From a virus: DNA of 64,000 bases. The translations under genes and the position numbers were made by a program. This document shows positions 1,482 through 48,481 of the stretch, one piece after another (position 1 is the first letter of the stretch; every line of letters begins with the position of its first letter). Where the stretch lies: the UHGV virus genome UHGV-1440165. One strand, 5' to 3'. The notes under the pieces were generated by a model, which ran no database searches, was not told the origin of the DNA, and saw only the letters and a list, made by a program, of their open reading frames with translations.

Positions 1482-1482
1482 G

Positions 1483-2598
1483 TTATGCGTCCAATTTGTT
1501 CAGGCGTTGTTGGGCAGCATTGTAGAAATGCTCTGCCAGTTTACAGACGTTGTCAGGGCGCTGGATGTTGTTCCCGGCGCGGATATCCTTCTTCAGGACT
1601 TCCACCGCATCGGTCGCCACCATCTCTTCGGTGACCTCAACCTTCTCAGCCGCCACTGTAATCGTCCGGTCTATGAAGTTGTAGTCAATGCACTTGCAGC
1701 GCTTCATTGCATCACAGAACTTTTCATAATGCTTGGCGTTGTCACGGTTCTGTACGATAACCTTAACGATTTGCCCTTCAATACCCAAGCCTGTGTTCAG
1801 CCATTCCGGGTCGATCCAGTTGCCTTCTTCATCGGAGGACAACTTGGTGTAGTCATACTCCACGAACCGGAAGAGCGTCTGGTGCTCGGCGTTCGGGATA
1901 AAGATCTCGCCACCGCGCATGTCGTCTACATAGAAGCCCCGGTTGGTGCCGTCTTTGTAGTCTTCCCAGTTCAGGTGATACGGAGTCCCAATATACTGAA
2001 TGTTACCTTCCATCGAACGGGTATGGAAATGCCCTGTGTCGACCCGGTCAAACTTGGAAAGCAATGCAACGTCGATCTGACCGTGATCACAAGTAGAGGA
2101 CTGGTACATTTTGAACCCTGCCAGCTCCAGATGCGCAAAACAGTACTTGGCGTCTGTATCTTGTATCGCCTTAATAGACGCATCATAGTTCTCCTTGTTG
2201 ATCCACGGTAGGAGCAGGGTCTTAACGCCCTCGATCATTACTTCAGTCGGTTCACTGTAATAGTGATAGACATCTGGGTCGAGTTCGTTCAGGTAGGACG
2301 GCCAGTTGATGCGGTTGGACTCTTCCAGGGTGATGTCATGGTTGCCCACGATGCCATTCCACTTGATACCAGCAGCTTTCAGCGCAGGAGTGAGTTCGTC
2401 CTTCAGCCAGTCTTTGTCGCGCCCGTACATGAATTTGCGGACATCAAAGGTGTCACCAAACTGCCAGATCTCTTTGATGTCAGAGTCAACAAGCTCAGGG
2501 ATGAAGTAATTGATGAGATAGTTCTTTATGAAGTCGCGAACGTAACGGGAACCATTACGGCTCCCGATATGCAGATCGCCGATTTTAGCAATCGCCAT
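1483..2598 (-). CDS. SbcD/Mre11-like metallophosphoesterase nuclease (T4 gp47-like)
   Basis: 371 aa; calcineurin-like phosphoesterase motifs (GDLHIG, GNHD); directly upstream of the SbcC-like gene. Confidence 0.85.
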   Translation of the reverse strand: MAIAKIGDLHIGSRNGSRYVRDFIKNYLINYFIPELVDSDIKEIWQFGDTFDVRKFMYGRDKDWLKDELTPALKAAGIKWNGIVGNHDITLEESNRINWPSYLNELDPDVYHYYSEPTEVMIEGVKTLLLPWINKENYDASIKAIQDTDAKYCFAHLELAGFKMYQSSTCDHGQIDVALLSKFDRVDTGHFHTRSMEGNIQYIGTPYHLNWEDYKDGTNRGFYVDDMRGGEIFIPNAEHQTLFRFVEYDYTKLSSDEEGNWIDPEWLNTGLGIEGQIVKVIVQNRDNAKHYEKFCDAMKRCKCIDYNFIDRTITVAAEKVEVTEEMVATDAVEVLKKDIRAGNNIQRPDNVCKLAEHFYNAAQQRLNKLDA

Positions 2599-3326
2599 TA
2601 TTCTGTTTCTCCTTCGTTTTCGTCCAGATCGAATTGGGTGTTGCCGAAGTCTTGATCTGAATTGTCTTCGGCCTGCGCTGTTACCGTATTCTTACCTTGT
2701 GACATGTATTGAAGTATGCCTTTCGCGATCTTTTTGTTCGATTCGGCGGCTCGGGCGTTCTCTACCTTCTCCCGCTCCTTCTGTCTTTGGGCATCCTTCT
2801 TGTTTTCGAAGTTTCCGATGCGCTCGCGGAAGTCCATGCCAATCCCAGTGGCATCAACAAAGATCTCTTGTTGGAAGTCAGGATCATCGGCCAGGCCTGC
2901 AAATCCACCTGCCTCTTCAAAGGAACGCAGCTTGATGTATGTGTGCTCTTCTTCTATGTTCAGCTTGCGGGCAAATGAGCGGTCAGCGCACATGGTCACC
3001 CAGGAGAAGAAGTTGATCTTGCCTTTGCGCCCGACGTGACCAACATCGAAGGTGTGGAGATAGCGAAGGATGTTGACTACAGCTTCAGACACCATGTCAT
3101 CGCGGTACGGATAATCGCGGTAATTGTAGCGGGTGCTCATCTTGCTGATGATGCGCTGGACCTGGACTGCAACGTAGTTGGGGATCTTGGGGAGCGGTGT
3201 GCCTTCAGTTAATGCCTTCTTGCGAGCGGGGATCCAATCACGAAGGATACTGATGACACGCTCGTTATCTTCGTCCGTAAAATATTTGACGACATTCTCG
3301 CCACGATCAACATAATTCATACCCAT
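2598..3326 (-). CDS. gp55-like late-transcription sigma factor (putative)
   Basis: 242 aa, ATG start; N-terminal half resembles T4 gp55 in pattern and sits next to the gp47/gp46-like genes as in T4; acidic C-terminal tail. Confidence 0.45.
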   Translation of the reverse strand: MGMNYVDRGENVVKYFTDEDNERVISILRDWIPARKKALTEGTPLPKIPNYVAVQVQRIISKMSTRYNYRDYPYRDDMVSEAVVNILRYLHTFDVGHVGRKGKINFFSWVTMCADRSFARKLNIEEEHTYIKLRSFEEAGGFAGLADDPDFQQEIFVDATGIGMDFRERIGNFENKKDAQRQKEREKVENARAAESNKKIAKGILQYMSQGKNTVTAQAEDNSDQDFGNTQFDLDENEGETE

Positions 3327-7428: not shown

Positions 7429-8091
7429 TTACACCTCCACCGCGTGGGACTTCAGGAGTTCGTCAATCGCTTTCTGTCCCATGTAGGAGAACGGGGTGCG
7501 CTGGTAGAACGCCCACAGTACCAGCTGAACAACGGCACGGGAACGGGTTTCAGCCGTCATCACCAGGTCACTGAAATGAGGAGACTCGGCTGTCCATTGG
7601 ATCACTTCGCCGAAGTCCTGATTGCAAGTCACAGAGATGCGGAACTTGTTGCACAGATCGTCGACTTCTTTGTAGGCATCGGTGGACACTCGGAGTTGTT
7701 CCGCATGCATCCAAGGGGTTGTGACGATCCTTTCACCCAATGTCTTGTCCGAAATGAACCATTCGACCGTTTTGTCAGATTTGGAGAATCCGTTGATGCG
7801 GTAGATACCGCCTTGTGACTCCATACTGCGCATGGCGTGATAGCGAGCATCGATTTCGTTGTTATGCATGGCATTGAAGTCAATGAACACGCGCCGCGCC
7901 AACACATCGTCCTCCGGCTGAAGAGCCAGGAAATCGTTCAGGCGGCTATAATGGAGGACATTGGAACCGTCGTGGCCATGTGTGCAATATGCGTAATAGC
8001 TGCCGATACGGGCGTGGGCAACATAAGACAACGGGGCGAAGAATAATCCGTCAGGATCAGGTCCGACGATGATAGAATAAAGTTTTTCCAT
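7429..8091 (-). CDS. Hypothetical protein
   Basis: First ATG at 8091 (MEKLYSII...); track start 8106 is a TTG codon. Upstream GC hairpin plus TTTCATTTGAGAGACTATATC leader. Confidence 0.5.
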   Translation of the reverse strand: MEKLYSIIVGPDPDGLFFAPLSYVAHARIGSYYAYCTHGHDGSNVLHYSRLNDFLALQPEDDVLARRVFIDFNAMHNNEIDARYHAMRSMESQGGIYRINGFSKSDKTVEWFISDKTLGERIVTTPWMHAEQLRVSTDAYKEVDDLCNKFRISVTCNQDFGEVIQWTAESPHFSDLVMTAETRSRAVVQLVLWAFYQRTPFSYMGQKAIDELLKSHAVEV

Positions 8092-8146
8092 GATATAGTC
8101 TCTCAAATGAAAGGCGGCCTTATGATAAGCCGCCCGAGATTATTGA

Positions 8147-9061
8147 TTATTGGAAATCGCCAACATACATGTTCAGCTTGTCATCCCACTCCACGACGAC
8201 GCGGATCGTTCCGGAATCTTCAGGGAAGGTCAGCTTAGAGCACATGGCGCGGTTGACATAAGTCCCGCTCTGGTTGACGTTGTAGTCCTTCCCAGCACAG
8301 ACACCGAAACGTTTGAAGTCACGGGTCACCATCATGTTCAGAGTTGTCCAAGGGAGTGCATCGCGCAGGGCTTTACACAGGATGATCTTTCCATCCGGTC
8401 TGAAGGAGACAAACATCTCATTGGCAACCCGGCGGCGAGCAGGCGGTTCAAGTTCGCGCAGGGAGATGAATTCAGAGGGATCATCCAAGGCACCCAAGGC
8501 ACCCAGGGCGACCATGTCTTCGCGAACTTTACTGACAACTTCAGTTACTGCGGACACGACTTCAACAGCCGGATTCGCCTTAAATGGTTCAACAGTCTTG
8601 GACATCTTGGATACAGACATCCCATCACCCTTGCGCTTCTCCGCATATTGCTCGACGGACTTGTCGCTCACCGGAGGCAGTTTGGTGGCAGGGGTTATAA
8701 CCGGGCTTGCATCTGGTTTCGACTTCGGGGTGCTACGAGCCAGGCGAAGATTTTCTTGGGCTTGCAGAATACGCTCTTGTCGTGTCTGTGGAGCCTTTGG
8801 TGAGATCTTCGTACTGAAGTCAGAAACACCGACCCAGTCACCCTGGTCATTGCGCTTGGCAACCAATGTCAGTTTGTGGATGATGCCCTGCAGCTTGCTT
8901 TCACGCAAATTGTCGGCATACCAGAACCTGGCGCCCATCTCGAACTTCTCGGCGAAGATGACACGAGCGTCTTCATGTACGAGCATCACTCGAGCCGCGT
9001 TGGGAGCGAACGTTTTGTTCTTTTCAATGATCGCCGCAGCGATAGTTTTCGTCAGGAGCAT
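8147..9061 (-). CDS. Hypothetical protein with low-complexity linker
   Basis: About 304 aa; ATG at 9061; central P/S/K-rich linker between two domains. Confidence 0.5.
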   Translation of the reverse strand: MLLTKTIAAAIIEKNKTFAPNAARVMLVHEDARVIFAEKFEMGARFWYADNLRESKLQGIIHKLTLVAKRNDQGDWVGVSDFSTKISPKAPQTRQERILQAQENLRLARSTPKSKPDASPVITPATKLPPVSDKSVEQYAEKRKGDGMSVSKMSKTVEPFKANPAVEVVSAVTEVVSKVREDMVALGALGALDDPSEFISLRELEPPARRRVANEMFVSFRPDGKIILCKALRDALPWTTLNMMVTRDFKRFGVCAGKDYNVNQSGTYVNRAMCSKLTFPEDSGTIRVVVEWDDKLNMYVGDFQ

Positions 9062-9111
9062 CACGATGTATTCCTATCGGTTCAATTGGAGGTTAAATTT
9101 TACCCTGAAAT

Positions 9112-9444
9112 CTATTTTGAAACGCCGACAAAGTCCTGGGCAATTCCCCGACAATACATCAGGTCGGTCTTCGTTTGTGGGCTGTTTTCTGCCGCCGACA
9201 TCATCATTGGCAGGTCCAGCGCATTCTCTATCTGGTCAACGCTGAACAGGTCAAGGCGCTTCAGCTCTCCCTCGAAGTCGGACAGGAGAATAGACGTGTC
9301 TTTGTCGTCCGGATGGAATTGCTGATACGTCTCCATCCAGGCAGCGCATGTATTCAGTTTGGACGGCGGGGCGGCATGTACCCCGCCGATATAGGCAACC
9401 ACGACAGCCAGGATTAACAAGAGGATGATTTTACGAGTCATCAT
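9112..9444 (-). CDS. Small secreted or membrane-anchored protein
   Basis: 110 aa; N-terminal MMTRKIILLLILAVVVAYIGGVHA reads as a signal peptide or signal anchor. Confidence 0.5.
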   Translation of the reverse strand: MMTRKIILLLILAVVVAYIGGVHAAPPSKLNTCAAWMETYQQFHPDDKDTSILLSDFEGELKRLDLFSVDQIENALDLPMMMSAAENSPQTKTDLMYCRGIAQDFVGVSK

Positions 9445-10127
9445 TCGTTCTCCTTCATCATGTTATCACAGTCGACACGAGTCTGTTGCAGCTCACGCGA
9501 CATACGAGGATCGTCGAGGTTCACACTCAGATTCGTGGCCAGATCTTTCAGGCCGTTCTGAACACGATCCTCATAATAGTGGTCGTTCTCAACCAGCCAG
9601 GCTCTGAGGCCAAGAGCGCGGGTACGCCATTGTTTCTTCAGAACACGGTCGGTTGTTTGTTCGGCACTGTACTCAAAGACCTTGATGCACTGGTTGCCAT
9701 CGTCGATAAGGTTCAGGTGACGGCGGCCAATCTGCACACCCTTCTGTAATGCCGGAGAAGGGAGCGAACGGCACTGTCTGACGGTCATGCGTCCTTGGGT
9801 GCCCATACGCCCAGTCATGATCAGATCGCTGGCCTCCATGCCTCCACGGTTAAATTCGTCGTCATTGAGGTAGCCCTTGAGGTTATAGGCTCCCTGTTTG
9901 TATCGGTTGAACTCAATCCCGGCATTGACAACAGCGGTGGAGACGTTGCCTGTGTTCCAGAGTTCAGCAAAGTTCTCTATGGATCCAGACTTATCGATTG
10001 CGACTGCCTGGGAGAACCCAGCGCAGTAGGAAAGATCAGACCACAGTTTGTCACCTGTGGTGTTCAGCTTGGCAGCGGCAGGGAGTGCCAGACCTGCAAG
10101 CACAACCCCAAGGATTAAACGTTTCAT
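9441..10127 (-). CDS. Secreted protein (signal peptide)
   Basis: ATG at 10127 preceded by AAGGAG; MKRLILGVVLAGLALPAAA is a signal peptide; mature part contains Cys residues. Track start 10193 is an upstream extension. Confidence 0.55.
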   Translation of the reverse strand: MKRLILGVVLAGLALPAAAKLNTTGDKLWSDLSYCAGFSQAVAIDKSGSIENFAELWNTGNVSTAVVNAGIEFNRYKQGAYNLKGYLNDDEFNRGGMEASDLIMTGRMGTQGRMTVRQCRSLPSPALQKGVQIGRRHLNLIDDGNQCIKVFEYSAEQTTDRVLKKQWRTRALGLRAWLVENDHYYEDRVQNGLKDLATNLSVNLDDPRMSRELQQTRVDCDNMMKENE

Positions 10128-10211
10128 GGTGATTCTCCTTATTTCATTGGATGAAATGATAGGCGGCTCACCATGCTGAGTAAAGGGTTTCAATAAACTA
10201 TCGTATTCAGA

Positions 10212-10661
10212 TTAGTACCGACTATCACTGACCGTCCGGTACTTCACACCCTTGAACTGCTTGGCAACCTTGACGAACTCCATCGCAGGCATGTCCACTT
10301 TGTAGACCTTGATGCGCTGACGGTCATCCATGTTCAGAGCAGCCACATAGCGGTGGGAGCCGTCGACCACATAGTTATCAGAAGACACCCAAACCCGACC
10401 CATGGGCTTCTTGTTTCTGATGTTCTTCATGATCTTCCAGACCTTCATCTTGTTGATTTCGTTCTGGGTGAGACGGAGCGATTTGATAGGAACCTGGCCA
10501 GCATCGATAGTGATGCCGAGTTCCTCCAGGTAGTCATGGAAGGCATCCTGTTTGTCATCGTCGATTTGTGGCATAGAAGAACGCGAAAGCCCGAGGTTTC
10601 CAACAGGAATCCTCAGGCCGTTGATAATGTTCAACCAGTCTATGAAGGAAGACATGAACAT
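10212..10661 (-). CDS. ParB-like nuclease domain protein (putative)
   Basis: Contains VVDGSHRYVAAL, resembling the ParB/sulfiredoxin-fold DGxHR motif; ATG at 10661 with GAGGTGA RBS (track start is GTG at 10670). Confidence 0.4.
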   Translation of the reverse strand: MFMSSFIDWLNIINGLRIPVGNLGLSRSSMPQIDDDKQDAFHDYLEELGITIDAGQVPIKSLRLTQNEINKMKVWKIMKNIRNKKPMGRVWVSSDNYVVDGSHRYVAALNMDDRQRIKVYKVDMPAMEFVKVAKQFKGVKYRTVSDSRY

Positions 10662-10804
10662 GAGATTCACCTCGGGATATGAATTATCCCTTAGTTAGTC
10701 GTGAAATGTCTTGGCGAGAAACCTCCCGACATATTCACAAAAGGCAATGATCACTAAACCCAATCCGCAACCAATAAGCCAACCCCAAAATTCAATGTCC
10801 ACCA

Positions 10805-11092
10805 TCACACCTCGTCTTCTTCAGGTCCACCGTCAATCAGGATACGAGCGGTGTCGAAAGTTTCCCCGCCCGTGTTCAGCAGCTTGGTCAGATCGTCAAG
10901 ATATCGGACCGTGCCAAGATCAGATGACCGCGTTATAAATTCCAGCATACCATACAGGGCTGATTTGAATCGGCTGTTGTCGATATCGTTCTTGATTTCC
11001 ATCAGGCGCAAGATGTTCTCTGACTGAGTATGGCCAACACACGCCTTGTCTCTGATCATCTCCTTGATAGAACTTCTCTCTGTTGGTGTCAT
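10805..11092 (-). CDS. Hypothetical protein
   Basis: 95 aa ORF, ATG start. Confidence 0.4.
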   Translation of the reverse strand: MTPTERSSIKEMIRDKACVGHTQSENILRLMEIKNDIDNSRFKSALYGMLEFITRSSDLGTVRYLDDLTKLLNTGGETFDTARILIDGGPEEDEV

Positions 11093-11466
11093 AACGAACC
11101 ACCCCCGACAGAGATCAAGAACTCTTCTTCAATGGTCGTGACCGGGCGGCGGTTGCGGGTTTCGATCATGAAGCCCCAGCCGCCGTCGGCGACGTTGCCA
11201 AAGGTCTTGACGCCAAAGGTCTTCTTCCCGTTGGAGCAGGCATAGAAGTCCAGGATGAACGGGCTACCCTGATTGTCGATCCCACGGTTTACGCCGTCCG
11301 CTACACAGCGCTCAATCATCTTCCCGTTCTTATACAGAACGAGGTCTTGGCCATACGCCTTGAAAGCATAAACGCCGTTGGTAGACACTCCGGTGATGAC
11401 AGGAGGAGCGGAAACAGCAGAGAAGGAAGCGCCCAGCAGGGCAACGGCGAGGATTAACTTTTTCAT
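11089..11466 (-). CDS. Secreted protein (signal peptide)
   Basis: ATG at 11466; MKKLILAVALLGASFSAVSA signal peptide; two Cys in mature part. Confidence 0.55.
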   Translation of the reverse strand: MKKLILAVALLGASFSAVSAPPVITGVSTNGVYAFKAYGQDLVLYKNGKMIERCVADGVNRGIDNQGSPFILDFYACSNGKKTFGVKTFGNVADGGWGFMIETRNRRPVTTIEEEFLISVGGGSL

Positions 11467-11490
11467 GATATAGTCTCTTGGTTTCAAATG

Positions 11491-11512
11491 GGCGGGGTAT
11501 GATTACCCCGCC
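11491..11512 (-). other. GC-rich hairpin (GGCGGGGTA-loop-TACCCCGCC) of a recurring intergenic element
   Basis: Perfect 9-bp stem; followed on the minus strand by CATTTGAAACC and the RBS/start of the 11466 gene. Confidence 0.5.
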
Positions 11513-11518
11513 GTGGGT

Positions 11519-12025
11519 TTATAGGGTAACAAGTGATACGGTAAAAACCATCGTCCCGTCAGTTGCCATTTTTCTTGAAACTGGTATGACGCGAGGCTGG
11601 CAGAATATCCATTCTTTCTCCATGGACGCCAAGTCCAGCATATCCATTTCTGATTCATCGCCTTTGTTCACAAATTTTTCTAGAGAACCATAGACATTAA
11701 GCCCCTCCGGGAGTCCGTTTCGATGTTTGTAACATATGCGGGCGACAGCTCTGGTTCCATACGATTTAGAAAATTGTTTGGCCACATGCTTCAGTTCACT
11801 GAAGCTAAGACAAGAATCCCATGTCTGAAACATGTCTCCTCGTTCAAACATCATCTCCAAACGCGCAACGTCCTCTTTAGGCAACCCGCGATAAAGTGTG
11901 GTCATCTGCGGTTCGCGTAATTCTCGCACCAGACCACGGATGGCAGGGGAAACAGTGCCAGGGCGCATGATGTGGGACTTATCATGGACGAGGTAAAATA
12001 AATCTTGAATTTGTTGATCGGTCAT
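11519..12025 (-). CDS. Hypothetical protein; possible ADP-ribosyltransferase-like
   Basis: 168 aa; ATG with GAAGGA RBS; candidate R / S-x-S / E-x-E triad (LYRG, DSCLSFS, EKE) is suggestive only. Confidence 0.35.
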   Translation of the reverse strand: MTDQQIQDLFYLVHDKSHIMRPGTVSPAIRGLVRELREPQMTTLYRGLPKEDVARLEMMFERGDMFQTWDSCLSFSELKHVAKQFSKSYGTRAVARICYKHRNGLPEGLNVYGSLEKFVNKGDESEMDMLDLASMEKEWIFCQPRVIPVSRKMATDGTMVFTVSLVTL

Positions 12026-12084
12026 GATGTATTTCCTTCATTTCAAATAGGCGGGGTAATCATACCCCACCCTAAGTTATAGAA

Positions 12085-12324
12085 TTAACTGATGTGCTTC
12101 AGAAGAGCGAAGAGGATCGCGGCCTTGGCTTTCACCTTTCCGACGACGCCTGTTTCGACATCGACTTCTTCGGCAACCCAATCTTTTCCCTTCTTGCTGA
12201 TGATAACATCGCGGCGCTGGGCATATACTTCTTTGGTCGCATACACACGGCGGAACCCTTTAGCGCGGAGCAAGCCCCAATTGCGATCAATCTCTACTGA
12301 AGTTTCGACCATTTTGTTCTTCAT
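12085..12324 (-). CDS. Hypothetical small basic protein
   Basis: 79 aa, ATG start, downstream of an early-type promoter. Confidence 0.4.
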   Translation of the reverse strand: MKNKMVETSVEIDRNWGLLRAKGFRRVYATKEVYAQRRDVIISKKGKDWVAEEVDVETGVVGKVKAKAAILFALLKHIS

Positions 12325-12375
12325 GATATAATCTTACCTTTCAACCTGGTGAACCCATCGTTCGCCAGTTATTGA

Positions 12376-12405
12376 ATAATAGGACATTCTTTAGAGGAAG
12401 TAAAC
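12376..12405 (-). promoter_or_regulatory. Sigma70-type early promoter (-35 GTTTAC, 18-nt spacer, -10 TATTAT)
   Basis: Minus-strand GTTTAC-N18-TATTAT immediately after a terminator hairpin; resembles the T4 early-promoter -35 consensus. Confidence 0.5.
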
Positions 12406-12415
12406 CCCTAAAAGT

Positions 12416-12440
12416 AAAAATCCCCAACAAACGTTGGGGA
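12416..12440 (-). terminator. Intrinsic terminator (TCCCCAAC-loop-GTTGGGGA + T-run)
   Basis: 8-bp GC stem followed on the minus strand by TTTTTA; lies downstream of the 12458..12682 gene. Confidence 0.6.
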
Positions 12441-12457
12441 TTTAATAAAAGTTATGC

Positions 12458-12682
12458 CTATTTAATTTCTCGGCTTGAATTTTCCAGTTCTAATTTTCTT
12501 ATAGCGGAAATTCTACCTTCATCAGTTGCGGGAAACTCCCAAACAGCACGACGTCCGTTGTGAGTATCACAACTTGCCAGCCAGAAGAAATTAGAGGGAT
12601 CTTTAAACAAGACCAATTTAGGGTTAGCAATATTGTTCAGGCAAAATGGGGCGAGGTCAACAACGCGTGATACAGCAGACAT
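12458..12682 (-). CDS. Hypothetical small protein
   Basis: 74 aa ORF, ATG start. Confidence 0.4.
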   Translation of the reverse strand: MSAVSRVVDLAPFCLNNIANPKLVLFKDPSNFFWLASCDTHNGRRAVWEFPATDEGRISAIRKLELENSSREIK

Positions 12683-12731
12683 AATATATACCTTCTTTCA
12701 ACGGACGGGAACGCCCCGCCCTATGAATTCA

Positions 12732-12761
12732 ATAATACGTATTTGCCTTATAGAAGTAAAC
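12732..12761 (-). promoter_or_regulatory. Sigma70-type early promoter (second copy of the GTTTAC-N18-TATTAT cassette)
   Basis: Near-identical copy of the 12376..12405 promoter. Confidence 0.5.
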
Positions 12762-12771
12762 CCCTAAAAGT

Positions 12772-12796
12772 AAAAATCCCCAACGTTTGTTGGGGA
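12772..12796 (-). terminator. Intrinsic terminator (second copy, loop inverted)
   Basis: Same TCCCCAAC/GTTGGGGA stem as at 12416..12440 with the loop sequence reverse-complemented; T-run on the minus strand; downstream of the ACP-like gene. Confidence 0.6.
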
Positions 12797-12802
12797 CTTC
12801 TG

Positions 12803-13126
12803 TTATTTGCGCAGGGCAACCACGAATTCAGCGAGTTCACCCATGGTCGGGTCATCGCCTTTACTGCCCAGCCAGCCGTCGTCTATTTCGACCTGAAACT
12901 CTTCTTCTAGTTCCATTACGATTTCGATAGCATCCAGTTCATCGCCGCCGAGGTCTTTCTTGGTGCGGAGGCCAGCCAGTTTGTCCAGGGCGTCTTCGTT
13001 TTGAGATGCCACGTCGTCCAGCAGTTTGCGCTTGTCATCGTCGCGCCACAGATCCATATTCAGATTCTCTGTAGCGTACTGAGCCAGGTGTCGCATCACC
13101 TCAACATATGTCGGTTTACTGCTCAT
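12803..13126 (-). CDS. Acyl carrier protein-like protein lacking the phosphopantetheine-attachment serine
   Basis: 107 aa; DLGGDELDAIEIVMELEEEFQVEIDD closely matches the ACP helix-II region [20 protein letters not shown], but the DSL serine codon is GAA (Glu); ATG with GGAGA RBS. Confidence 0.6.
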   Translation of the reverse strand: MSSKPTYVEVMRHLAQYATENLNMDLWRDDDKRKLLDDVASQNEDALDKLAGLRTKKDLGGDELDAIEIVMELEEEFQVEIDDGWLGSKGDDPTMGELAEFVVALRK

Positions 13127-13144
13127 GTCACTTCTCCCAAAGAA

Positions 13145-40521: not shown

Positions 40522-42219
40522 TTATTCTTCACCACCAGGCGGGGTAGGCGCTGGGATGACGTTAGGTCTGAATTTCAGTGGGCTGACTTCCCCGCCGCCG
40601 CCGAAGCCGCCGGATTCATCTGCCTGCACTTCAGGATATTTGCCTTCTTTCTTCTCTTTCGCGATCTTCTCTTGCTGATCTTTGATGTCTTCGTCAGACA
40701 TGCGCAGCAGATTGCGTTGAGCATAATCGATAGAGAAGAGAGTGCCGATGTACGGTTCAATCTGACCAAGAGCCGCCATACGCTGTGACAAGATTTCATT
40801 CTCTTGTTGTTCACGGATGAAGCTGTCTGAAGTGAATTCGAACTTGACAAACGGCTTGATCTTTTCGTTCCAGTCGGCCTGATCTGTAATGCCTTTCAGT
40901 ATCAGCTGGCGACGCAGAAGTTCCAGGAAGATACCAGAAGAATAACGGCGGCGCAGGCTGGCGCAGAACTTGTTGAAGCGCAGTTCTTCCTGAGTAATCT
41001 CAGCCAGATTGGAGCCACCAATGTTGATGGAACCTTCCTCTTGTAGACGCCCTTTCGGGATCATCAGGGACTCGTACAGCTTCTCACGGAAGTAGTTCAC
41101 GTGATCCATCTGGCCAAGCTGATCACCGCCGCCGACGTTGGAGATCTCGGTTGCGTTCTGCCCTTCACGACGCGGCAGCCAGTAGTCTTCAGCGATACCC
41201 ATGAGATGGGTGTTGCCAGCAACCTTACCTGTTGTGCGGTCATATGCCAGACGGTTTTTGAATTTACCCATCATGGCTTGCATGTATTCTTCTGCCGACT
41301 TCTTACCCAGCGTACCCACGTCGAGGTAGAACGCTCGCTTCTCAGGAGCACGCGTGATCGCATAGATGACCGTTGCATCCTCGGTTGTAACAAGGTTGTT
41401 CAGGGGACGGATAGCCGGGTTCAGCAGGCCTGGTACAACCCCATTTGCCAGAGGCTCTTCGCCGCTGTCCAGGTACACAATACTCTCATCGTCGAACACC
41501 AGTTCTTGTTGTGACGGCTGGAAGTTCTGAGACGTACCGGACTGACCAGTGAACTGGTTGCGGTTGTAGTTCGGGTTGTAATAGTATTGGAGTTTGACTT
41601 CGCTGATGACTTCGATGCCGTCACGCATTTCCTTTTGTACGATGTACACAGGACGGATACAGCGTGAGTCCATCATGATGAGTTTGGCGATACCCGCTTT
41701 CTTGTTCTTCGGGTCCACCACGACGTGATAAGCCTGGCGACCTTCAACATACCATTTGCGGATCTTCTGATACGCAGTGTTGTCGAAGTCAAGGAGATGC
41801 ATGATCTCTTTGAATGCGTCAGTGATCTTCTCTTTGACTTCGTCTGTGACGCCCTCTACCTTCTCCAGGTTGATGGATACAGGAGTCTCGTCCTCTTCAC
41901 AGGTGACGACGTCGTTGACAATGATATCCACAGCCTTACGAATCTCAGGCTGCTGGGCCATGGACTGGTACTCTTCGACCAGCTGTTTGACGTTGAGCAA
42001 CTCACTCTCAACACCAACGAAATTGAATGTGTTCGCGCCGCCCTGGAGGATGATGGAACCATCCTGAGCATCGTCCAGCGCAACAACAGTCGCTTTTGAA
42101 AGCAACTTCTCTTCTTGGTTCGTGACCAACTTGTCGGTATCAATCGGCGCTTCTACTTTGCCGCCGCTACCGAACAGGCCGAAGAACCCGTTTCCGAATG
42201 CACCATTACCGAATGCCAT
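40522..42219 (-). CDS. Portal protein (gp20-like)
   Basis: 565 aa, ATG start, glycine-rich N- and C-termini; lies between tail tube and prohead core genes as in T4. Confidence 0.7.
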   Translation of the reverse strand: MAFGNGAFGNGFFGLFGSGGKVEAPIDTDKLVTNQEEKLLSKATVVALDDAQDGSIILQGGANTFNFVGVESELLNVKQLVEEYQSMAQQPEIRKAVDIIVNDVVTCEEDETPVSINLEKVEGVTDEVKEKITDAFKEIMHLLDFDNTAYQKIRKWYVEGRQAYHVVVDPKNKKAGIAKLIMMDSRCIRPVYIVQKEMRDGIEVISEVKLQYYYNPNYNRNQFTGQSGTSQNFQPSQQELVFDDESIVYLDSGEEPLANGVVPGLLNPAIRPLNNLVTTEDATVIYAITRAPEKRAFYLDVGTLGKKSAEEYMQAMMGKFKNRLAYDRTTGKVAGNTHLMGIAEDYWLPRREGQNATEISNVGGGDQLGQMDHVNYFREKLYESLMIPKGRLQEEGSINIGGSNLAEITQEELRFNKFCASLRRRYSSGIFLELLRRQLILKGITDQADWNEKIKPFVKFEFTSDSFIREQQENEILSQRMAALGQIEPYIGTLFSIDYAQRNLLRMSDEDIKDQQEKIAKEKKEGKYPEVQADESGGFGGGGEVSPLKFRPNVIPAPTPPGGEE

Positions 42220-42286: not shown

Positions 42287-42820
42287 TTAGAGAGACTTGT
42301 CGGAGATGGCCTGGAAGTAACGCAGGTCAACAGTGAACTGAGTATAAGAGTCCATTGCAGACATGTCCAGTTCCAGCTGGCCGAGGTTCTGTGGCCAGGT
42401 GCCCTGAAGGGTCCAGGTCTTGGTGACGTTATCGTTCGCATCCAGAAGTTCCATGATCACGTCACGGAAGTAATCGTCCGGATTTGCAGACGCACGGTTG
42501 TTGTTGCTACCGTTAATGTACTGCTGCCAGACTTCGAATGCGTTGTAAGGGGCGTTGTCCACGACGTTGATGAACGTCACAGGCAGAGCCTCAAAACGAC
42601 GGTCACCAGGGAATGGAAGTTCACGTCCACCCCATGGGACAAGGATCTCACCCAGCTGGCCAGTCGGGGTGTTGGTTGTTACAGCCAACAGAGACACATC
42701 ACGAATGGTGTCTGAACCCGCCACGAAAGCTGGGAATGGAATGGTTACACGCCAGCGGTGTTGACGTTGTACGCCACCACCACGGGACATGGCACCACGG
42801 AATTCGTTTACTGTAGCCAT
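42287..42820 (-). CDS. Tail tube protein (gp19-like)
   Basis: 177 aa; follows the sheath gene. Confidence 0.65.
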   Translation of the reverse strand: MATVNEFRGAMSRGGGVQRQHRWRVTIPFPAFVAGSDTIRDVSLLAVTTNTPTGQLGEILVPWGGRELPFPGDRRFEALPVTFINVVDNAPYNAFEVWQQYINGSNNNRASANPDDYFRDVIMELLDANDNVTKTWTLQGTWPQNLGQLELDMSAMDSYTQFTVDLRYFQAISDKSL

Positions 42821-42840
42821 TATAGATTCTCCAGAAAGAG

Positions 42841-43554
42841 TTACACAATTCTATTTAGCTGCCAACCAGTCGTATTCAAACGTTCAATGGTCGCAGTTTT
42901 CCTATGATACACAGACGGCGGTGGAACTGGAATACCCTTGTCGATATAGTCATACAATGCTGAATATTTAAGCCCGAGTGTTTCTACATACTCGCGGCAA
43001 TTGCCATGGATGAAGTATTCTTCACCTGATGGAGAAATCAACTTGAACTTCTTGGCGTGTCCGTTGTTTTTGCCCTTCCGAATGCCAGTCTCCACACAAG
43101 TTTTACTGAATAAAGATTTGTCTTCATCTGACCATACTATGCCTGTACGGCAACTAACAATCTCGCCAGTCTTCCAACGCGGGTCATCACAACTGACAAG
43201 ACCCAAACTTTTCCCGGTGATGGGGTCTTTAGCTCCATGTTTCCCTATGAAAGCGGCTCCGTCTCCGCCTGTGGTCTTGTTGTACCCTTTCTGTAGTGAC
43301 ATATGGGTGCCATGTTGCTCGATTAGGATGATTTCTAAATCTTTGAGGTCTTCGGGGGTTTTGGTCTGGGCTATGACCTGGAATGAGAAAGACTCTTCAC
43401 CATATTTGCGTATAGCCTGATGAATGAAGAAATCAGAACCATTCTTGGCACTGTTACAGTGCTCCCACCAGCGATGGTTTGGGTCTCTGGCTGTTATCCC
43501 GATGTACGCTTTCTGATTTACGAGATTCGTGATTTTGTATACGCTTCCGATCAT
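42841..43554 (-). CDS. GIY-YIG homing endonuclease (freestanding)
   Basis: N-terminus VYKITNLVNQKAYIGIT...R...WEH with downstream conserved E/N is a classic GIY-YIG signature; inserted between sheath and tube genes. Confidence 0.7.
   Translation of the reverse strand: MIGSVYKITNLVNQKAYIGITARDPNHRWWEHCNSAKNGSDFFIHQAIRKYGEESFSFQVIAQTKTPEDLKDLEIILIEQHGTHMSLQKGYNKTTGGDGAAFIGKHGAKDPITGKSLGLVSCDDPRWKTGEIVSCRTGIVWSDEDKSLFSKTCVETGIRKGKNNGHAKKFKLISPSGEEYFIHGNCREYVETLGLKYSALYDYIDKGIPVPPPSVYHRKTATIERLNTTGWQLNRIV
42852..42858 (-). promoter_or_regulatory. Late-promoter-like motif (GCTAAATAGAA)
   Basis: About 32 nt upstream of the tail tube ATG, inside the 3-prime end of the GIY-YIG gene. Confidence 0.4.
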
Positions 43555-43634
43555 TTCGATGCTCTCTTAGTGAAATCGATCTATTGTAACTCGCAAGAGA
43601 TCATTGAAATGCCCTCCGGAGAGGGCATGTGTAT

Positions 43635-45530
43635 TTAAGATGCTGCGACGATACCGCCGCCAGTTTCGATCTCGGAGAACTCCATGTCCGGTCGAACGGA
43701 AGCAAAGTCAAGATACACCCAATTTATGCTGTACTCTGGCTTCAACCAGATACCCGCAACCATCTGGTTGGCAGCGATGACGTCGGCGGTGTTGTTGTCA
43801 GCATCACACTTGACTTTACCGTCATAGATCGCACCCATGTTCGCCAGCTGGCGGATGTATGGGCGTACAGCGTTGCTGAACAGGCTGCGAGTGAACTCAT
43901 CGTTGTTCTCACCAAGGTAGTATTTGGCGATGGCAGCGATGTTCTGCTCGGCCATGATGAACAGGCCACGAACGTTGATGCGGTCAAACGCAGATGGACG
44001 AGTCAGGCCAGTCTTGTCGCCGTACAGCACGATGCCTTCGTTGGAGAAGGTAACGATGCTGTTGACCTGATTGCGATAGAGTACAGCACGCTCATCAGAA
44101 GACGCAGACCAGGCCATGCGATTGTAGTTGTTGTATTTGCCACGGTTGTGGAACGCTGGAGACTTGTAGATACCAGCCAGCTCAATGCTGCGTGCCCAAA
44201 CACCTGCCGTACCACCACACGCCGGGATCCAGCGCATCTTGTCGTTGTACTTGTCGTACACATACGCCCAGTTGTCGTCCATGAAGAAGTAGGAGGAGTC
44301 GCGCACCAGGCTTTCGCGCCAGGCAACAACATCATCCATCTCACGCCCACGGTTGCCAACGACATTGTCACGCAGTGGAGATACGAAAGACACGGTGTCT
44401 TTACGCTCGGTAGACAGATCAATCAGCGCCTGTTGCTCGATGAGTTCTTCACAGAAACCGAACACTGGCTTGGCGTCATACGCTTCAGCGTTGTTCAGCG
44501 CCTGGATAGCCGCCACGCGGTTCCCAGTGTAATCGTCCACACCACCTTCGAGTTCAGTAACACCAGCGGCCAGGGTGGTGGCGAAGGTGTACACCCAATT
44601 GGAGGTGTCGTTGATCACATCTTTGAAGTACGCGTTGGAGCCATCGGATTTCTTAGAACCCTGAGTGGTCTGCATCAGTTCATACTTCTCGATGATCGTA
44701 CCGGAAGCGCCGACAGTGGTGATGACAGCGGTAGCAGTCAGACCATTGGCGTCTGGAACAATCGCAGTCACAGCCTGAGGACCGATGGCTTTATGGGTAA
44801 CGATGACGGTGTTGGACTTCACAACAACAGAAGAATACACGTCAGTCAGAGCCGTCAGCGCAGTGCCGATCTTGGTCGCCAGAGTCGCCGGAGTATCAGT
44901 GTCGGTGTACGCCACGTCTTCACCAGCAACAGAGATGGAGCCAGCAGCTGTTGCAGTACCGGAAACAGAGATACGGTCAACCTGACCAACAGCACCAGAA
45001 GAGTCGGTGATGCGACCCACTTTGTCAACGATGACGATGTGGTATTCACCCGGCTGTGGAGCATATGCGAAGTTGTTGCGGAATTCCCAAGTCGGGAACA
45101 GCGCAGCATCACAGATGTTCACAGCGATATCGTTACCCAGGGTGCCAGCATAGCGGCCAGTCCAGGTAATAGACGCAGACGGGGTTGCCGCTTCGAAGTC
45201 CAGCTTGTTGCGGATCAGGATGGCGGTCTGGCCTTTGGTGACGGAGTTACGCGCCGCCGGACCAACCACACGAGTTACCCAAGCCACAGAGCTGTAGGAC
45301 AGGAAGTCAGCAACAACCAGAAAGTCGGTTGCAGTTGCGTCGTTCGGTTTGAAGAATTTCTTCACAAGGCCAGTTTCACCACCAGTAACAAGCACTGGGA
45401 GTTCAGCTTCACCCCATTGGAATTTACCAACGGCTGCACCCTGTACAACAACGGATGGAGACGTCTGAAGCGTGGCATCACGCTCCGTCCACTGTACGGA
45501 CGGCGCGACGCTGAAGCTTTGAGTTGCCAT
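43635..45530 (-). CDS. Tail sheath protein (gp18-like)
   Basis: About 631 aa from ATG at 45530 (MATQSF...) with GAAGGA RBS; immediately downstream of the large terminase gene as in T4. Confidence 0.7.
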   Translation of the reverse strand: MATQSFSVAPSVQWTERDATLQTSPSVVVQGAAVGKFQWGEAELPVLVTGGETGLVKKFFKPNDATATDFLVVADFLSYSSVAWVTRVVGPAARNSVTKGQTAILIRNKLDFEAATPSASITWTGRYAGTLGNDIAVNICDAALFPTWEFRNNFAYAPQPGEYHIVIVDKVGRITDSSGAVGQVDRISVSGTATAAGSISVAGEDVAYTDTDTPATLATKIGTALTALTDVYSSVVVKSNTVIVTHKAIGPQAVTAIVPDANGLTATAVITTVGASGTIIEKYELMQTTQGSKKSDGSNAYFKDVINDTSNWVYTFATTLAAGVTELEGGVDDYTGNRVAAIQALNNAEAYDAKPVFGFCEELIEQQALIDLSTERKDTVSFVSPLRDNVVGNRGREMDDVVAWRESLVRDSSYFFMDDNWAYVYDKYNDKMRWIPACGGTAGVWARSIELAGIYKSPAFHNRGKYNNYNRMAWSASSDERAVLYRNQVNSIVTFSNEGIVLYGDKTGLTRPSAFDRINVRGLFIMAEQNIAAIAKYYLGENNDEFTRSLFSNAVRPYIRQLANMGAIYDGKVKCDADNNTADVIAANQMVAGIWLKPEYSINWVYLDFASVRPDMEFSEIETGGGIVAAS

Positions 45531-45572
45531 AATATTATTCCTTCTCGGTAGAGTTTCGCTCAATTTGAAAGA

Positions 45573-45579
45573 TATTTAG
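45573..45579 (-). promoter_or_regulatory. Late-promoter-like motif (CACTAAATATCTT)
   Basis: Between the terminase stop and the sheath gene, about 43 nt upstream of the sheath ATG. Confidence 0.45.
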
Positions 45580-45582
45580 TGA

Positions 45583-47793
45583 TCACCGTCTCAACCATTC
45601 TTCCATAGACATGCCGGAACGTTCGTCATAAACCTGGATTCCACCAAAGCCTGGCACGTTCTCTATGGAGTGTGGATCAGGGGCAGACAGCACTCCCCCG
45701 AATGGCATCATCTGTGATTCTTCCATCGCAGACAAACGTCCCCTCATGTCCACTGAGATGCTTGAGTTGGTGAGATCACTAAACCATTCTTGTTTCACCG
45801 CCCATGCATAGAGCACGAGAGGCATTACACAGTCATCATGACAACCATCGTCGGCTTCATACCTTGTCCCAGTCCATACGAATGTACTGAGTTCATCGAT
45901 TGTGTCCTGATCGTCGATAACCAACATCTCACGTTCGATGAGAGCCTTGAGGTTGGCACAACCATTCGAACGCACTTTCTTGTTGGTGTTGATACCAGGT
46001 TCAGGGCGGCGGCCACCAATTCGTTTACCAGTGCCCTTCGCATCTGTCGTGGTGAAGATGATCTCTGGATATTCAATTTCCTGATATAGAATTGTGATTA
46101 CCTGGCCACCCACGTCGTTGTTGGTTTCAACCAGCATCGGGCACGTGCCATACTTCTCGCCCATATCGGCGATAGTGTATGCATACATCATTGGAGGTAT
46201 CGTGTTGTTTCGATACTTGGCCGCAATCTTGTGAGGATAATCTGTGATGTCCAAGATGGTCAGAACAGAGTAATCCCCCTCCACTCCCTTGCCTGTATCG
46301 GCGATACCCATGTAGATGCGCTTCGGATCGTAATCGTGATAGATCTTGGTGAACTCGTTTGGCTCCTGATAGAGCTTCGAGGTCATCTTGTCTAAACACT
46401 TCGCCGGGATCAATGAGCCGACAGAACCACGGAACTTGATACCGAATTCCTGATCGAAACGTGCATCGCCCAGCTTCGCCCTCTGTTTGGATTCCCAGTT
46501 TGGATCTTTGGTGTACGTTGGAACGCGATACCATGGGACCTCTGTGAGTTTGAAGTCGTTGTACTGAGGATGCTCTGGGTTCGCCTTGGTGACGATGTCG
46601 TAGAACAACCCGCGCTGGCCTTTCGGTGTACTGGTCAGGATACAACGTGAAGTCTCTGCAGATGCAATCGCGGGGAATGTAGACTCCCAGAATTCAAAGT
46701 CGTTTTCAATGAACGCCACTTCGTCCACATATAGGAGCGATACAGATCGACCACGGATGGAGTCGGATGATGTCGCATAGGCGTAGATCTTCGAACCGTT
46801 TTCGAACTCGATAAGCGTGGAGCCGAACTTCTCACAACCCTGTTGGAGGAAGAATGGCAGATCCTGATACGCCTTGCGGATACGGTCCAGGATTTCAATC
46901 GCCTGCTTCTCTTTGTTCGCCAGTACCGCGATCTCTTTGTCGGAGTGGAACATCGCATACCAGAGGAGGAACGCTGCCACGACTGTCGTGTTATGGCTGA
47001 GGAACCCACCTGTGTAATAACGCTGATCACTCGACTTGACTTGCAGGTCGAACATGTGATGCATTTCACCAGTCTGCCAGACCTCGGCCACTTCTTCTAA
47101 ACCATCTTCGGTCTGAAGGTAAGACCCGGCCTCCAGGTCTTTGGCGAACACTTCCTTCATGTTGCTATTGAAGAACATGTGATCGTCGGCAACGTGAATG
47201 CGTCGACCTGTGGTGGTGACAACCACATACTCCTGATACTGCTTCGTCTTGTGCGCTGCAATAACCGGAACCCAGCCTTTGTCGCAACGAACAAAATAAC
47301 GCTTGCCGAAGCGGCTGTCTACGAACTTATCGTGCTTGCCAAAGGCATTCAGTGGCTCAGCGTGATTCGGTCCCTCGAAGCGGCTGTGAAGCTCCTCGAT
47401 GGTGATGCTGAACTCTTCCTGGCTGACAGTGTCATACACAGTGATGTAAGTGTCGCCCTTCACACACTTACCAGACTGACGCGCCTGCACGACTGCATTG
47501 AAGCGGTGATCCTGAAAGTCGTGGAACAATTGCTTCTGATAATCGTGCATATCGAAGAGGATGAAGCCCTTATCGATTGTCGTGATCTTGTAGTAGTTGG
47601 CAGCGAAGTAATGGGCGTCCATCGCACACTCGACGAACTCAGATTCCTGTTCATCAGTCAGCATCAACTCTACACGAGGAGCACGCACAGACGGCTTGCG
47701 CATGAACGTCTGGTCCATACGCAATCTGACGTCTTCGATTTTGAACCCCGTCTTTATCGGGGCGTATTCGATATCACGCTTCTGATACGCCAT
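45583..47793 (-). CDS. Terminase large subunit (gp17-like) interrupted by a mini-intein
   Basis: ATG at 47793 with GAAGGTGA RBS (track start 47802 is GTG). Removing the insert restores the Walker A motif ARQSGK-TT. Confidence 0.8.
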   Translation of the reverse strand: MAYQKRDIEYAPIKTGFKIEDVRLRMDQTFMRKPSVRAPRVELMLTDEQESEFVECAMDAHYFAANYYKITTIDKGFILFDMHDYQKQLFHDFQDHRFNAVVQARQSGKCVKGDTYITVYDTVSQEEFSITIEELHSRFEGPNHAEPLNAFGKHDKFVDSRFGKRYFVRCDKGWVPVIAAHKTKQYQEYVVVTTTGRRIHVADDHMFFNSNMKEVFAKDLEAGSYLQTEDGLEEVAEVWQTGEMHHMFDLQVKSSDQRYYTGGFLSHNTTVVAAFLLWYAMFHSDKEIAVLANKEKQAIEILDRIRKAYQDLPFFLQQGCEKFGSTLIEFENGSKIYAYATSSDSIRGRSVSLLYVDEVAFIENDFEFWESTFPAIASAETSRCILTSTPKGQRGLFYDIVTKANPEHPQYNDFKLTEVPWYRVPTYTKDPNWESKQRAKLGDARFDQEFGIKFRGSVGSLIPAKCLDKMTSKLYQEPNEFTKIYHDYDPKRIYMGIADTGKGVEGDYSVLTILDITDYPHKIAAKYRNNTIPPMMYAYTIADMGEKYGTCPMLVETNNDVGGQVITILYQEIEYPEIIFTTTDAKGTGKRIGGRRPEPGINTNKKVRSNGCANLKALIEREMLVIDDQDTIDELSTFVWTGTRYEADDGCHDDCVMPLVLYAWAVKQEWFSDLTNSSISVDMRGRLSAMEESQMMPFGGVLSAPDPHSIENVPGFGGIQVYDERSGMSMEEWLRR
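46990..47466 (-). mobile_element. Mini-intein inserted in the terminase P-loop
   Basis: 159 aa insert beginning with Cys (GK|CVKGDTYI...) and ending ...GGFLSHN|T (His-Asn then Thr). Confidence 0.65.
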
Positions 47794-48481
47794 TGTCTTC
47801 ACCTTCTTCCTTCGGCTGCGGCTCCGCCTGAACGTCGATTACATCTTCTTCAGGAGCAGGTTCTTTGGCCGCAGATTTCGCAGCAGCACGCTCGTCAGCC
47901 CGTCTTTTAGCATCTTCAATAGTCTTCAGCAGATCACGCGAAGACCTGGCCTGTTTGCCGACGTTGACTGTTGTTGTGCCATCAGGAGATGTCGTGACTT
48001 CAACAGTCGTTTCATCACCAGGAGGCGGCTCTCTGTCCCCTGTGACAGCCTTGATGGTTTTTTGGTTCTCCATCAGGTCTTTGTTCAGGCCGCGCATGAG
48101 TTCACCCAGCTCTTTGAAGACTGTGAACGCGCGGGGCGCTTCTGTCGTCGTCGCGAGTTTGGCCGCCTGTCCCATCATGAACATGGTGGCCTCTTGCATC
48201 GCATAGGTCGTGTCACGGATGCGTTTGTAGTCGGTGGTGGCATCAGTGTCTTCGAAGTCTGGAACTTTAGACTCCTTGGACTTCAACTCTTCCGGGTCCA
48301 GGGATGGCGGGAACACCACAGGCTCGTACCCTGCAGGCTTTTCACCCAGCCACTCACCTGTATCTGGATCGTAATCCACACCAGCCTTTGGAGTTGTTTT
48401 CTCCATGACCTCTTGAGCGACTTCATCCCTTGCATGGATAGCATCAAGAGTGCTCAGCAAACGTTCCGACATGTTACTCAT
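47774..48481 (-). CDS. Putative terminase small subunit (by position)
   Basis: ATG at 48481 with GGAGA RBS; 3-prime end overlaps the terminase large subunit start; charged, low-complexity C-terminus. Confidence 0.4.
   Translation of the reverse strand: MSNMSERLLSTLDAIHARDEVAQEVMEKTTPKAGVDYDPDTGEWLGEKPAGYEPVVFPPSLDPEELKSKESKVPDFEDTDATTDYKRIRDTTYAMQEATMFMMGQAAKLATTTEAPRAFTVFKELGELMRGLNKDLMENQKTIKAVTGDREPPPGDETTVEVTTSPDGTTTVNVGKQARSSRDLLKTIEDAKRRADERAAAKSAAKEPAPEEDVIDVQAEPQPKEEGEDNGVSEA

Follow-up and report, generated by a model that had tools for sequence, protein, structure and literature searches.

Freestanding endonuclease genes are well described in phage T4, where segA-G and mobA-E are inserted between conserved essential genes in what is termed 'intronless homing' (PMC2988022). 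The T4 enzymes cut away from their own genes and co-convert the flanks; cassettes such as segC/F/G and mobA/C/D/E are promoter-less, promoters of downstream genes are embedded in segG, segA, segE, mobB and mobC, and sequestration of the ribosome-binding site (RBS) controls I-TevI, I-TevII, I-TevIII, segB and mobE (PMC2988022). Nuclease genes at recombination boundaries beside essential phage genes have also been described (PMC10448857). For the phage group studied here, a GIY-YIG endonuclease between tail tube and tail sheath was tabulated for PhiSH19 in 2011 (PMC3220722), and abundant freestanding endonucleases were described for LIMEstone1 in 2012 (PMC3296691). We analyzed a gene of this kind in a 64,000-nucleotide (nt) stretch of the virus genome UHGV-1440165 (the window), a minus-strand open reading frame (ORF) of 237 amino acids (aa) located between the tail sheath and tail tube genes. 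Judged by sequence comparison, it is very probably a functional or recently functional freestanding (intron-less), I-TevI-like GIY-YIG homing endonuclease (HE) gene. We refer to the gene as HE and to alleles with and without its cassette as HE+ and HE-. The finding as such is already known: dozens of GenBank records annotate orthologues in this position as GIY-YIG or homing endonucleases. The gene and its protein domains are:

42841..43554, minus strand: HE ORF, 237 aa (ATG 43554-43552, TAA 42843-42841), from the ORF list and domain matches
43264..43554, minus strand: N-terminal GIY-YIG catalytic domain, ~residues 1-97, with Y6, Y17, R28, H32, E74 and N92
43060..43263, minus strand: linker, ~residues 98-165, of which residues 137-165 are predicted to be disordered (predicted local distance difference test, pLDDT, <50)
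42844..43059, minus strand: putative C-terminal DNA-binding domain, ~residues 166-237, with a beta-hairpin, short helices and a conserved RLNTTGW tail

An earlier, sequence-only reading had placed a gene with a clear N-terminal GIY-YIG domain between sheath and tube. Its position is exact, from ATG to TAA on the minus strand, and Pfam PF01541 matches residues 3-85 (E=2.3e-9, 37.9 bits against a cut-off of 22.6). PHROG 314 'homing endonuclease' covers nearly the whole length (residues 1-235, E=3.5e-37), and the NCBIfam model TIGR01453 'group I intron endonuclease' is passed with 62.1 bits against 56.05, residues 3-207 aligning with profile positions 2-204 of 215. These scores assign the protein to the GIY-YIG superfamily (PF01541 / CL0418) and to the I-TevI-like TIGR01453 subfamily. 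The residue set of the superfamily comprises two tyrosines, an arginine, a histidine, a metal-binding glutamate and an asparagine, all of which are present in HE; Y6, Y17, G19, R28, H32, E74 and N92 are invariant in a 29-sequence homologue alignment. The AlphaFold2 model (mean pLDDT 81.7) has the alpha/beta GIY-YIG fold, with pLDDT at or above ~90 in residues 1-80 and at 88 in residues 81-90, and a confidently predicted C-terminal region (residues 166-237).

I-TevI, encoded in the T4 td intron (PDB 1MK0/1LN0), has the same catalytic fold and residues and belongs to the same TIGR01453 subfamily. HE residues 3-64 align with I-TevI, covering Y6, Y17, R27 and H31, and we take Y6/Y17/R27/H31/E75/N90 of I-TevI to correspond to Y6/Y17/R28/H32/E74/N92 of HE. 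The two enzymes also share an architecture, predicted in the case of HE, in which a flexible linker joins an N-terminal nuclease to a C-terminal DNA-binding module. HE is, however, only 21-22% identical to I-TevI in the catalytic domain, is not located inside an intron, and has a linker without a recognizable CxC...CxxC zinc finger. No four-cysteine zinc finger was seen by eye, the cysteines at about positions 122, 135, 153 and 186 (estimated, not computed) lacking CxxC spacing. Pfam returned no domain for the C-terminal half, its sole match there, DUF3104, being at chance level. The sole match of the HE protein to a non-GIY-YIG nuclease is a weak one to I-HmuI, whose aligned residues are not listed and which presumably runs via the C-terminal DNA-binding region. 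Orthology to the T4 Seg proteins was rejected, as the Pfam family SegE_GIY-YIG (PF19835) stays below its cut-off (19.3 vs 25 bits, E=0.0014). In the orthologue alignment the linker occurs in two interchangeable sequence types, of which the window carries type A; the HE gene is therefore itself a mosaic.

The ratio of nonsynonymous to synonymous substitution rates (dN/dS) is 0.05-0.14 against five orthologues, and the HE protein is therefore under purifying selection. Together with the intact GIY-YIG active site this describes what appears to be a complete two-domain protein, and it looks functional. HE could instead be inactive, a homing endonuclease gene in decay whose reading frame has stayed open by chance, and decay is indeed evident at this locus: the 152-aa ORF of most Kuttervirus and Taipeivirus phages is truncated, and LIMEstone1 retains a C-terminal fragment only. 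We consider this very unlikely for the window, where the ORF is full length, all catalytic residues are invariant, dN/dS is low and both domains are confidently predicted.

Comparison of the sheath-tube junction among related phages defines the inserted segment and its borders:

43635..45530, minus strand: tail sheath gene, gp18-like, 631 aa (PHROG 23, E=1.8e-112); 43635..45579 including CTAAATA at 45573-45579
43609..43628, minus strand: sheath terminator-like hairpin AUGCCCUCUCCGGAGGGCAU, common to occupied and empty alleles
42859..43601, minus strand: inserted cassette relative to empty alleles, 743 bp, from the alignment of occupied and empty junctions
42852..42858, minus strand: late-promoter-like CTAAATA of the tail tube gene, in the last HE codons, 32 nt upstream of the tube ATG
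42287..42820, minus strand: tail tube gene, gp19-like, 177 aa (PHROG 45, E=4.9e-57); 42287..42832 including the Shine-Dalgarno (SD) sequence GGAGAA at 42827-42832

At the left edge, homology to the empty junctions of phages Ag3 and P46FS4 spans the sheath stop codon, the hairpin GCCCUCUYCGGAGGGC (43609-43628) and about seven further bases. At the right edge it restarts upstream of the tube gene at (A/G)CTAAWTAGAATTGTGTAAC...GGAGAA...ATG, and the cassette replaces ~6 nt (AAAGCA) of Ag3/P46FS4. The sequence of the last six HE codons and the stop (CAG CTA AAT AGA ATT GTG TAA) is also found in empty alleles. The alignment thus places the cassette precisely between the sheath terminator hairpin and the tube late promoter. 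A 278-bp probe over the Ag3 empty junction is contiguous in five distinct phages (Ag3, MK-13, Gloob, P46FS4 and EspM4VN), and the sheath-tube spacer of empty-site phages measures 78-81 bp. In the HE+ Agtrevirus phages SKML-39 and ChubbyThor the match of the same probe (97.9%) breaks off exactly at the edge of the cassette. The junction is empty as well in L027, a distant relative from IMG/VR whose tube protein is 78% identical; at the promoter position it has CTAAATAGA. The comparison of junctions across related phages, which the sequence-only reading had sought as a test, has thus returned empty-site alleles, and HE is not universal at this position.

These alleles also bear on whether HE is encoded in a group I intron that splits a structural gene. 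Such a context is suggested by the TIGR01453 match and by the database name derived from it: a 100% identical protein (P0001), on a 159,985-bp contig in JGI/ENA, carries the JGI name 'group I intron endonuclease', which stems from the TIGR01453 model. The sheath and tube ORFs are nevertheless complete, with their own stop, terminator, promoter and SD, and the empty alleles are ordinary 78-bp intergenic spacers. Rfam, run at the gathering threshold over the whole window, returned no family at all. HE is therefore freestanding, and the probability that it is intron-encoded is, in our estimate, very small.

The 3' end of HE had been said to contain a late-promoter-like motif of the tube gene, and CTAAATA is indeed present at 42852-42858 within the last HE codons. 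Since (A/G)CTAAWTA occurs in every junction configuration, empty ones included, the promoter is resident and does not belong to the mobile element. The window has 10 copies of CTAAATA, all of them on the minus strand, against an expectation of 3.1, and 0/100 shuffles reach 10; nine of the ten copies sit 22-43 nt upstream of minus-strand start codons (sheath, scaffold, tube and other ORFs):

29350, 32548, 39301, 39657, 42852, 45573, 49856, 56355, 59519 and 62542, minus strand: CTAAATA sites, usually ACTAAATAY

The copy at 39657 is internal to the prohead protease gene, and variants of the motif are seen at the portal gene (CTAATTA) and at the capsid gene (CTAAGTA). The late promoter of T4 is TATAAATA, which CTAAATA resembles, and CTAAATA is probably the late promoter core of this phage. 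Late promoters of LIMEstone1 were likewise called by similarity to T4 (PMC3296691). The arrangement at the tube gene, a downstream promoter inside an endonuclease ORF, corresponds to that of T4 segG and gene 32.

A promoter for HE itself was sought in the 80-nt spacer upstream (43555-43634): a sigma-70 scan found no site, and inspection found no good CTAAATA. The cassette appears to be promoter-less. The sheath hairpin has a poor U-tail on the minus (coding) strand, and together with the lack of a spacer promoter this makes read-through from the sheath late promoter (45573-45579) the likeliest source of HE mRNA; it is probably how the gene is transcribed. Directly after the terminator we find a second structure in both the minimum free energy and the centroid fold (z about -2):

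43555..43608, minus strand: predicted RNA hairpin ending at the AUG, in which UUCAAUGAUCUCUU (43595-43608) pairs with the HE SD region AAGAGAGCAUCGAA (43555-43568)

Its arms are retained in nine other alleles. S118-type alleles have lost a 26-nt loop, leaving a stem of 14 positions with a 3-nt loop, and phage phiMAM1 has a different sequence with a stronger hairpin over the start codon (z=-4.8); an RBS-occluding hairpin is predicted in all allele types. The folds suggest that the hairpin probably throttles HE translation by sequestering the SD. I-TevI has an RBS-sequestering hairpin upstream as well, but in HE, unlike I-TevI, we see no convincing late promoter within the hairpin by which the RBS could be released at late times. 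The loop sequence TTACAATAGA was considered as such a promoter and rejected, since it agrees with CTAAATA at 4/7 core positions when compared by eye with nine upstream sites.

To place HE among its relatives, we used a 4-kb query around the gene, which matched 282 phage records. All but one are named for phages of enterobacterial hosts, the odd record being labelled an Enterococcus phage, and every record that we opened belongs to the Ackermannviridae. Nearest are the Agtrevirus pSal-SNUABM-02, a Salmonella phage, at 96.4% identity and the Yersinia phage CAU_YEP3 at 94.1%, and by these matches the carrier of HE appears to be an Agtrevirus-like Ackermannviridae phage. Only 49/282 related records contain an orthologue with >=60% aa identity; they come from Agtrevirus, Kuttervirus and Limestonevirus, from Taipeivirus-like phages of Klebsiella and from the Serratia phage phiMAM1. 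At 47% identity, an orthologue is also present at this junction in the distant Aeromonas phage phiA8-29 (Tedavirus). Orthologues in the Ackermannviridae (RPN242 gp149, KE27 CDS0016, SKML-39 gp014, ChubbyThor gp196, XF4 'F-LimII', S118 gp151, phiMAM1 and phiA8-29 orf156) share with HE its position between sheath and tube, its orientation, the 5' hairpin and the 3' overlap with the tube promoter, at 47-82% aa identity. The label 'F-LimII' on Dickeya phage XF4 traces to a gene at a different place in LIMEstone1 (beside the head completion protein), the sheath-tube occupant of LIMEstone1 being the Hef-like F-LimVIII. A related-locus search with the HE alignment returned only distant GIY-YIG genes in unrelated viral contigs, and the window holds no HE paralogues elsewhere.

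HE and its flanks differ in their relationships. Compared with pSal-SNUABM-02, nucleotide identity is 98.8% in the sheath gene and 98.9% in the tube gene, versus 76.8% in HE. Along the alignment it is 99-100% in the sheath gene down to ~43780 and in the whole tube gene, and 53-89% from ~43745 to ~42946; the breakpoints were read from the alignment, where mismatches become dense at 43745 and cease after 42946. Among isolate phages, HE is most similar to its counterparts in KE27 and RPN242 (82% aa), phages whose flanks are just 80-90% identical. GC content is 45.1% in HE, 54.4% in the sheath gene and 53.7% in the tube gene. The evolutionary history of HE is thus decoupled from that of its flanks. 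The 3' end of the sheath gene in the window resembles the Kuttervirus alleles of KE27 and S118 and not that of the nearest genomic relative, and the window allele is a new recombinant. The two segments concerned are:

42946..43745, minus strand: recombinant tract relative to pSal-SNUABM-02, from ~110 nt before the end of the sheath gene, across the spacer, to about codon 200 of HE
43635..43745, minus strand: hypervariable, mostly synonymous patch at the sheath 3' end, from comparisons of near-identical genomes (L002, L005, L112, L113 and L001)

The sheath patch is variable in other pairs as well. Ag3 is 94-100% identical to SKML-39 or ChubbyThor over 900 nt of sheath and then 70-86% in the last 100 nt, and Ag3 and P46FS4, both of which are empty, are 100% identical and then 70% identical in the bin 50-100 nt before the sheath stop; no comparable drop in identity is seen at the 5' end of the tube gene. 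The differences are almost all synonymous and include a switch of the serine codon family (TCC/AGC), which argues for import from divergent donors rather than local mutation. We hypothesize that the patch records repeated gene conversion around a break that falls at the 3' end of the sheath gene or close to it.

That HE is a likely mobile homing element, as had been proposed, is thus supported by the empty alleles, the incongruence between HE and its flanks, the invariant catalytic residues and the low dN/dS: the gene shows presence/absence polymorphism at one precise site and a phylogeny incongruent with that of its surroundings. Several observations weigh against it. The mosaic of the window and pSal-SNUABM-02 is an exchange between two HE+ alleles, which proves recombination and not endonuclease-driven homing. 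Variants of the sheath 3' and tube 5' ends do not sort cleanly between HE+ and empty alleles. Truly empty sites are rare (5 phages), which leaves few present-day homing opportunities, and the phiA8-29 orthologue is also compatible with old vertical inheritance followed by losses. Support for the SD hairpin is thermodynamic only (z about -2); 11/12 of its pairs are invariant, one varies between UA, UG and CG, and the covariation score is reached in 437/500 shuffles. Biochemical or genetic tests of cleavage or homing were found neither for the HE protein nor for any orthologue.

Some of the same observations would suit a domesticated GIY-YIG nuclease, inherited essentially vertically and no longer homing, in which presence and absence reflect losses and which would serve the phage, for example by cutting competitor or host DNA or by stimulating recombination. 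Strong purifying selection, the rarity of empty sites and the presence of the same lineage at the same junction in distant genera including Tedavirus all fit such a gene. Yet within a genus HE and its flanks have incongruent histories, Agtrevirus genomes with and without HE are 98-100% identical up to the very edge of the cassette, and unrelated endonuclease genes swap at the same spot and leave truncated remnants, as is typical of selfish-element turnover. Moreover, the cutting of competitors (marker exclusion) is part of the homing mechanism and not an alternative to it. Domestication is therefore improbable in our view, and a mobile homing endonuclease gene remains the preferred reading.

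The swapping at this spot is seen in a survey of the sheath-tube gap at 35 loci, which gave the following states:

gap of 80-81 bp: empty
gap of 548-561 bp: 152-aa GIY-YIG ORF, which is the Menlow-type gene truncated after the catalytic domain (58% identity over 128 aa)
gap of 787 bp: full Menlow-type gene, 43% identical to the window protein
gap of 801-819 bp: window-type gene
gap of 903 bp: 264-aa GIY-YIG gene on the opposite strand
gap of 1233-1264 bp: window-type and truncated Menlow-type genes in tandem
gap of 1375 bp: reverse-strand gene and truncated Menlow-type gene
gap of 1253-1257 bp: two hypothetical ORFs
gap of 2110-2384 bp: 599-608-aa Hef-like gene on the opposite strand

The 152-aa 'GIY-YIG endonuclease' of the PhiSH19/Vi01 type (PMC3220722) shares junction and superfamily with HE, but belongs to the truncated Menlow-type lineage, is 43% identical to the N-terminal domain of the window protein and has no DNA-binding half. 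The 152-aa ORF is found without this half in most Kuttervirus and Taipeivirus phages (short ORF at ~3011-3470 in L011, L014, L018, L024, L026 and L029; the loci compared also include L012 2769-3476). In S118-type genomes the window-type gene is inserted just upstream of the truncated Menlow-type ORF. The Hef-like gene, which is F-LimVIII of LIMEstone1 (PMC3296691), is located at 1420-3246 on the reverse strand in L013 (LIMEstone1), at 4381-6180 in L007 (PC3), and also in L015 and L020. Beside it, LIMEstone1 retains a C-terminal remnant of the window-type gene (L013 3340-3477; residues 185-237, 45% identity). The two small hypothetical ORFs (100 and ~118-125 aa) occupy L006 3908-4699 and L009 2289-3079 (LHE287 and an IMG/VR contig), and the second of them also accompanies the Hef-like gene in PC3. 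As a series, these occupants look like the pattern of invasion, decay and replacement that is expected of selfish endonuclease genes.

The survey raises a broader possibility, which we put forward tentatively and do not regard as the probable one. The ~20-nt spacer between terminator and promoter could be a family-wide landing pad for at least five unrelated, mutually replacing endonuclease lineages, counted here as window-type, Menlow-type, reverse-strand GIY-YIG, Hef-like and the two-ORF cassette, whose function is unassigned. The last ~100 nt of the sheath gene would be their shared cleavage and conversion zone, and the window enzyme would be a chimera in which exchange of the linker alters the spacing or the specificity of cleavage. 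If true, competition between endonucleases, and not mutation, would account for most of the sequence diversity in the C-terminal part of this essential tail gene.

By analogy, HE would operate in the manner of Seg and Mob, by 'intronless homing', although its enzyme is of the I-TevI-like kind. It shares with the T4 Seg and Mob genes the intergenic insertion between conserved essential genes, a promoter-less cassette that would use an upstream promoter, a sporadic distribution and co-conversion-like mosaic flanks; it differs from them in its phage family, the Ackermannviridae, and in its insertion site. In a mixed infection with a cassette-less phage, the C-terminal domain may bind a long asymmetric site and the N-terminal domain may make a double-strand break near the sheath-tube junction, our best guess being that the break falls within or beside the final ~100 nt of the sheath gene. 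Repair by recombination with the HE+ genome would then bring in the cassette along with neighbouring sheath sequence (co-conversion). Transcription of the cassette would be by read-through from the sheath late promoter across the weak terminator, and the SD-sequestering hairpin would limit HE translation. The tube gene would keep its own promoter, now embedded in the HE coding sequence, which would make the insertion non-polar and difficult to remove. T4 offers precedents for cassettes without a promoter, embedded promoters, RBS hairpins, cleavage at a distance and co-conversion alike (PMC2988022).

The genes around the sheath-tube junction follow the T4 order gp17-gp18-[HE]-gp19-gp20 on the same strand:

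45583..47802, minus strand: large terminase
40522..42219, minus strand: portal

Beyond the portal gene lie those of the prohead protease, the scaffold and the major capsid protein, assigned from position and sequence. A 640-aa open frame antisense to the sheath gene (43629-45551, plus strand) spans the whole of it and is without family support; it is most likely a by-product of the codon usage of the sheath gene, which is rich in GC at third codon positions (61%). The terminase large subunit (TerL) contains a probable 159-aa mini-intein (46990-47466, minus strand, within 45583-47802) in its Walker A P-loop, reading VVQARQSGK / CVKGDTY...GGFLSHN / TTVVAAFLL. The Pfam match to Intein_splicing is weak (E=4.3e-4, below cut-off); TerL proteins of relatives are of equal length, and the record of phage Marshall reads 'intein-containing terminase large subunit'. 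In the early region (~7430-13130 and 26380, minus strand) a GC-rich hairpin, GGGCGGGG...CCCCGCCC or a similar one, stands before many genes, with (A/C)TTTGAAA and an SD after it, an arrangement that looks like a repeated terminator-plus-initiation module.

Taken together, HE matters little beyond correct annotation, being a textbook freestanding homing endonuclease gene in a phage family used for biocontrol. Mildly new are only the eight non-empty occupancy states of one spacer and the sharp confinement of hypervariability to the end of the sheath gene. Its practical worth is modest: HE encodes an I-TevI-like nuclease whose target site is probably long. Alleles that are occupied, empty, truncated or replaced form a convenient natural series for studying how homing endonuclease genes invade, decay and are replaced, and otherwise near-identical Ackermannviridae genomes differ at the sheath-tube junction through selfish-element turnover, not tail function.

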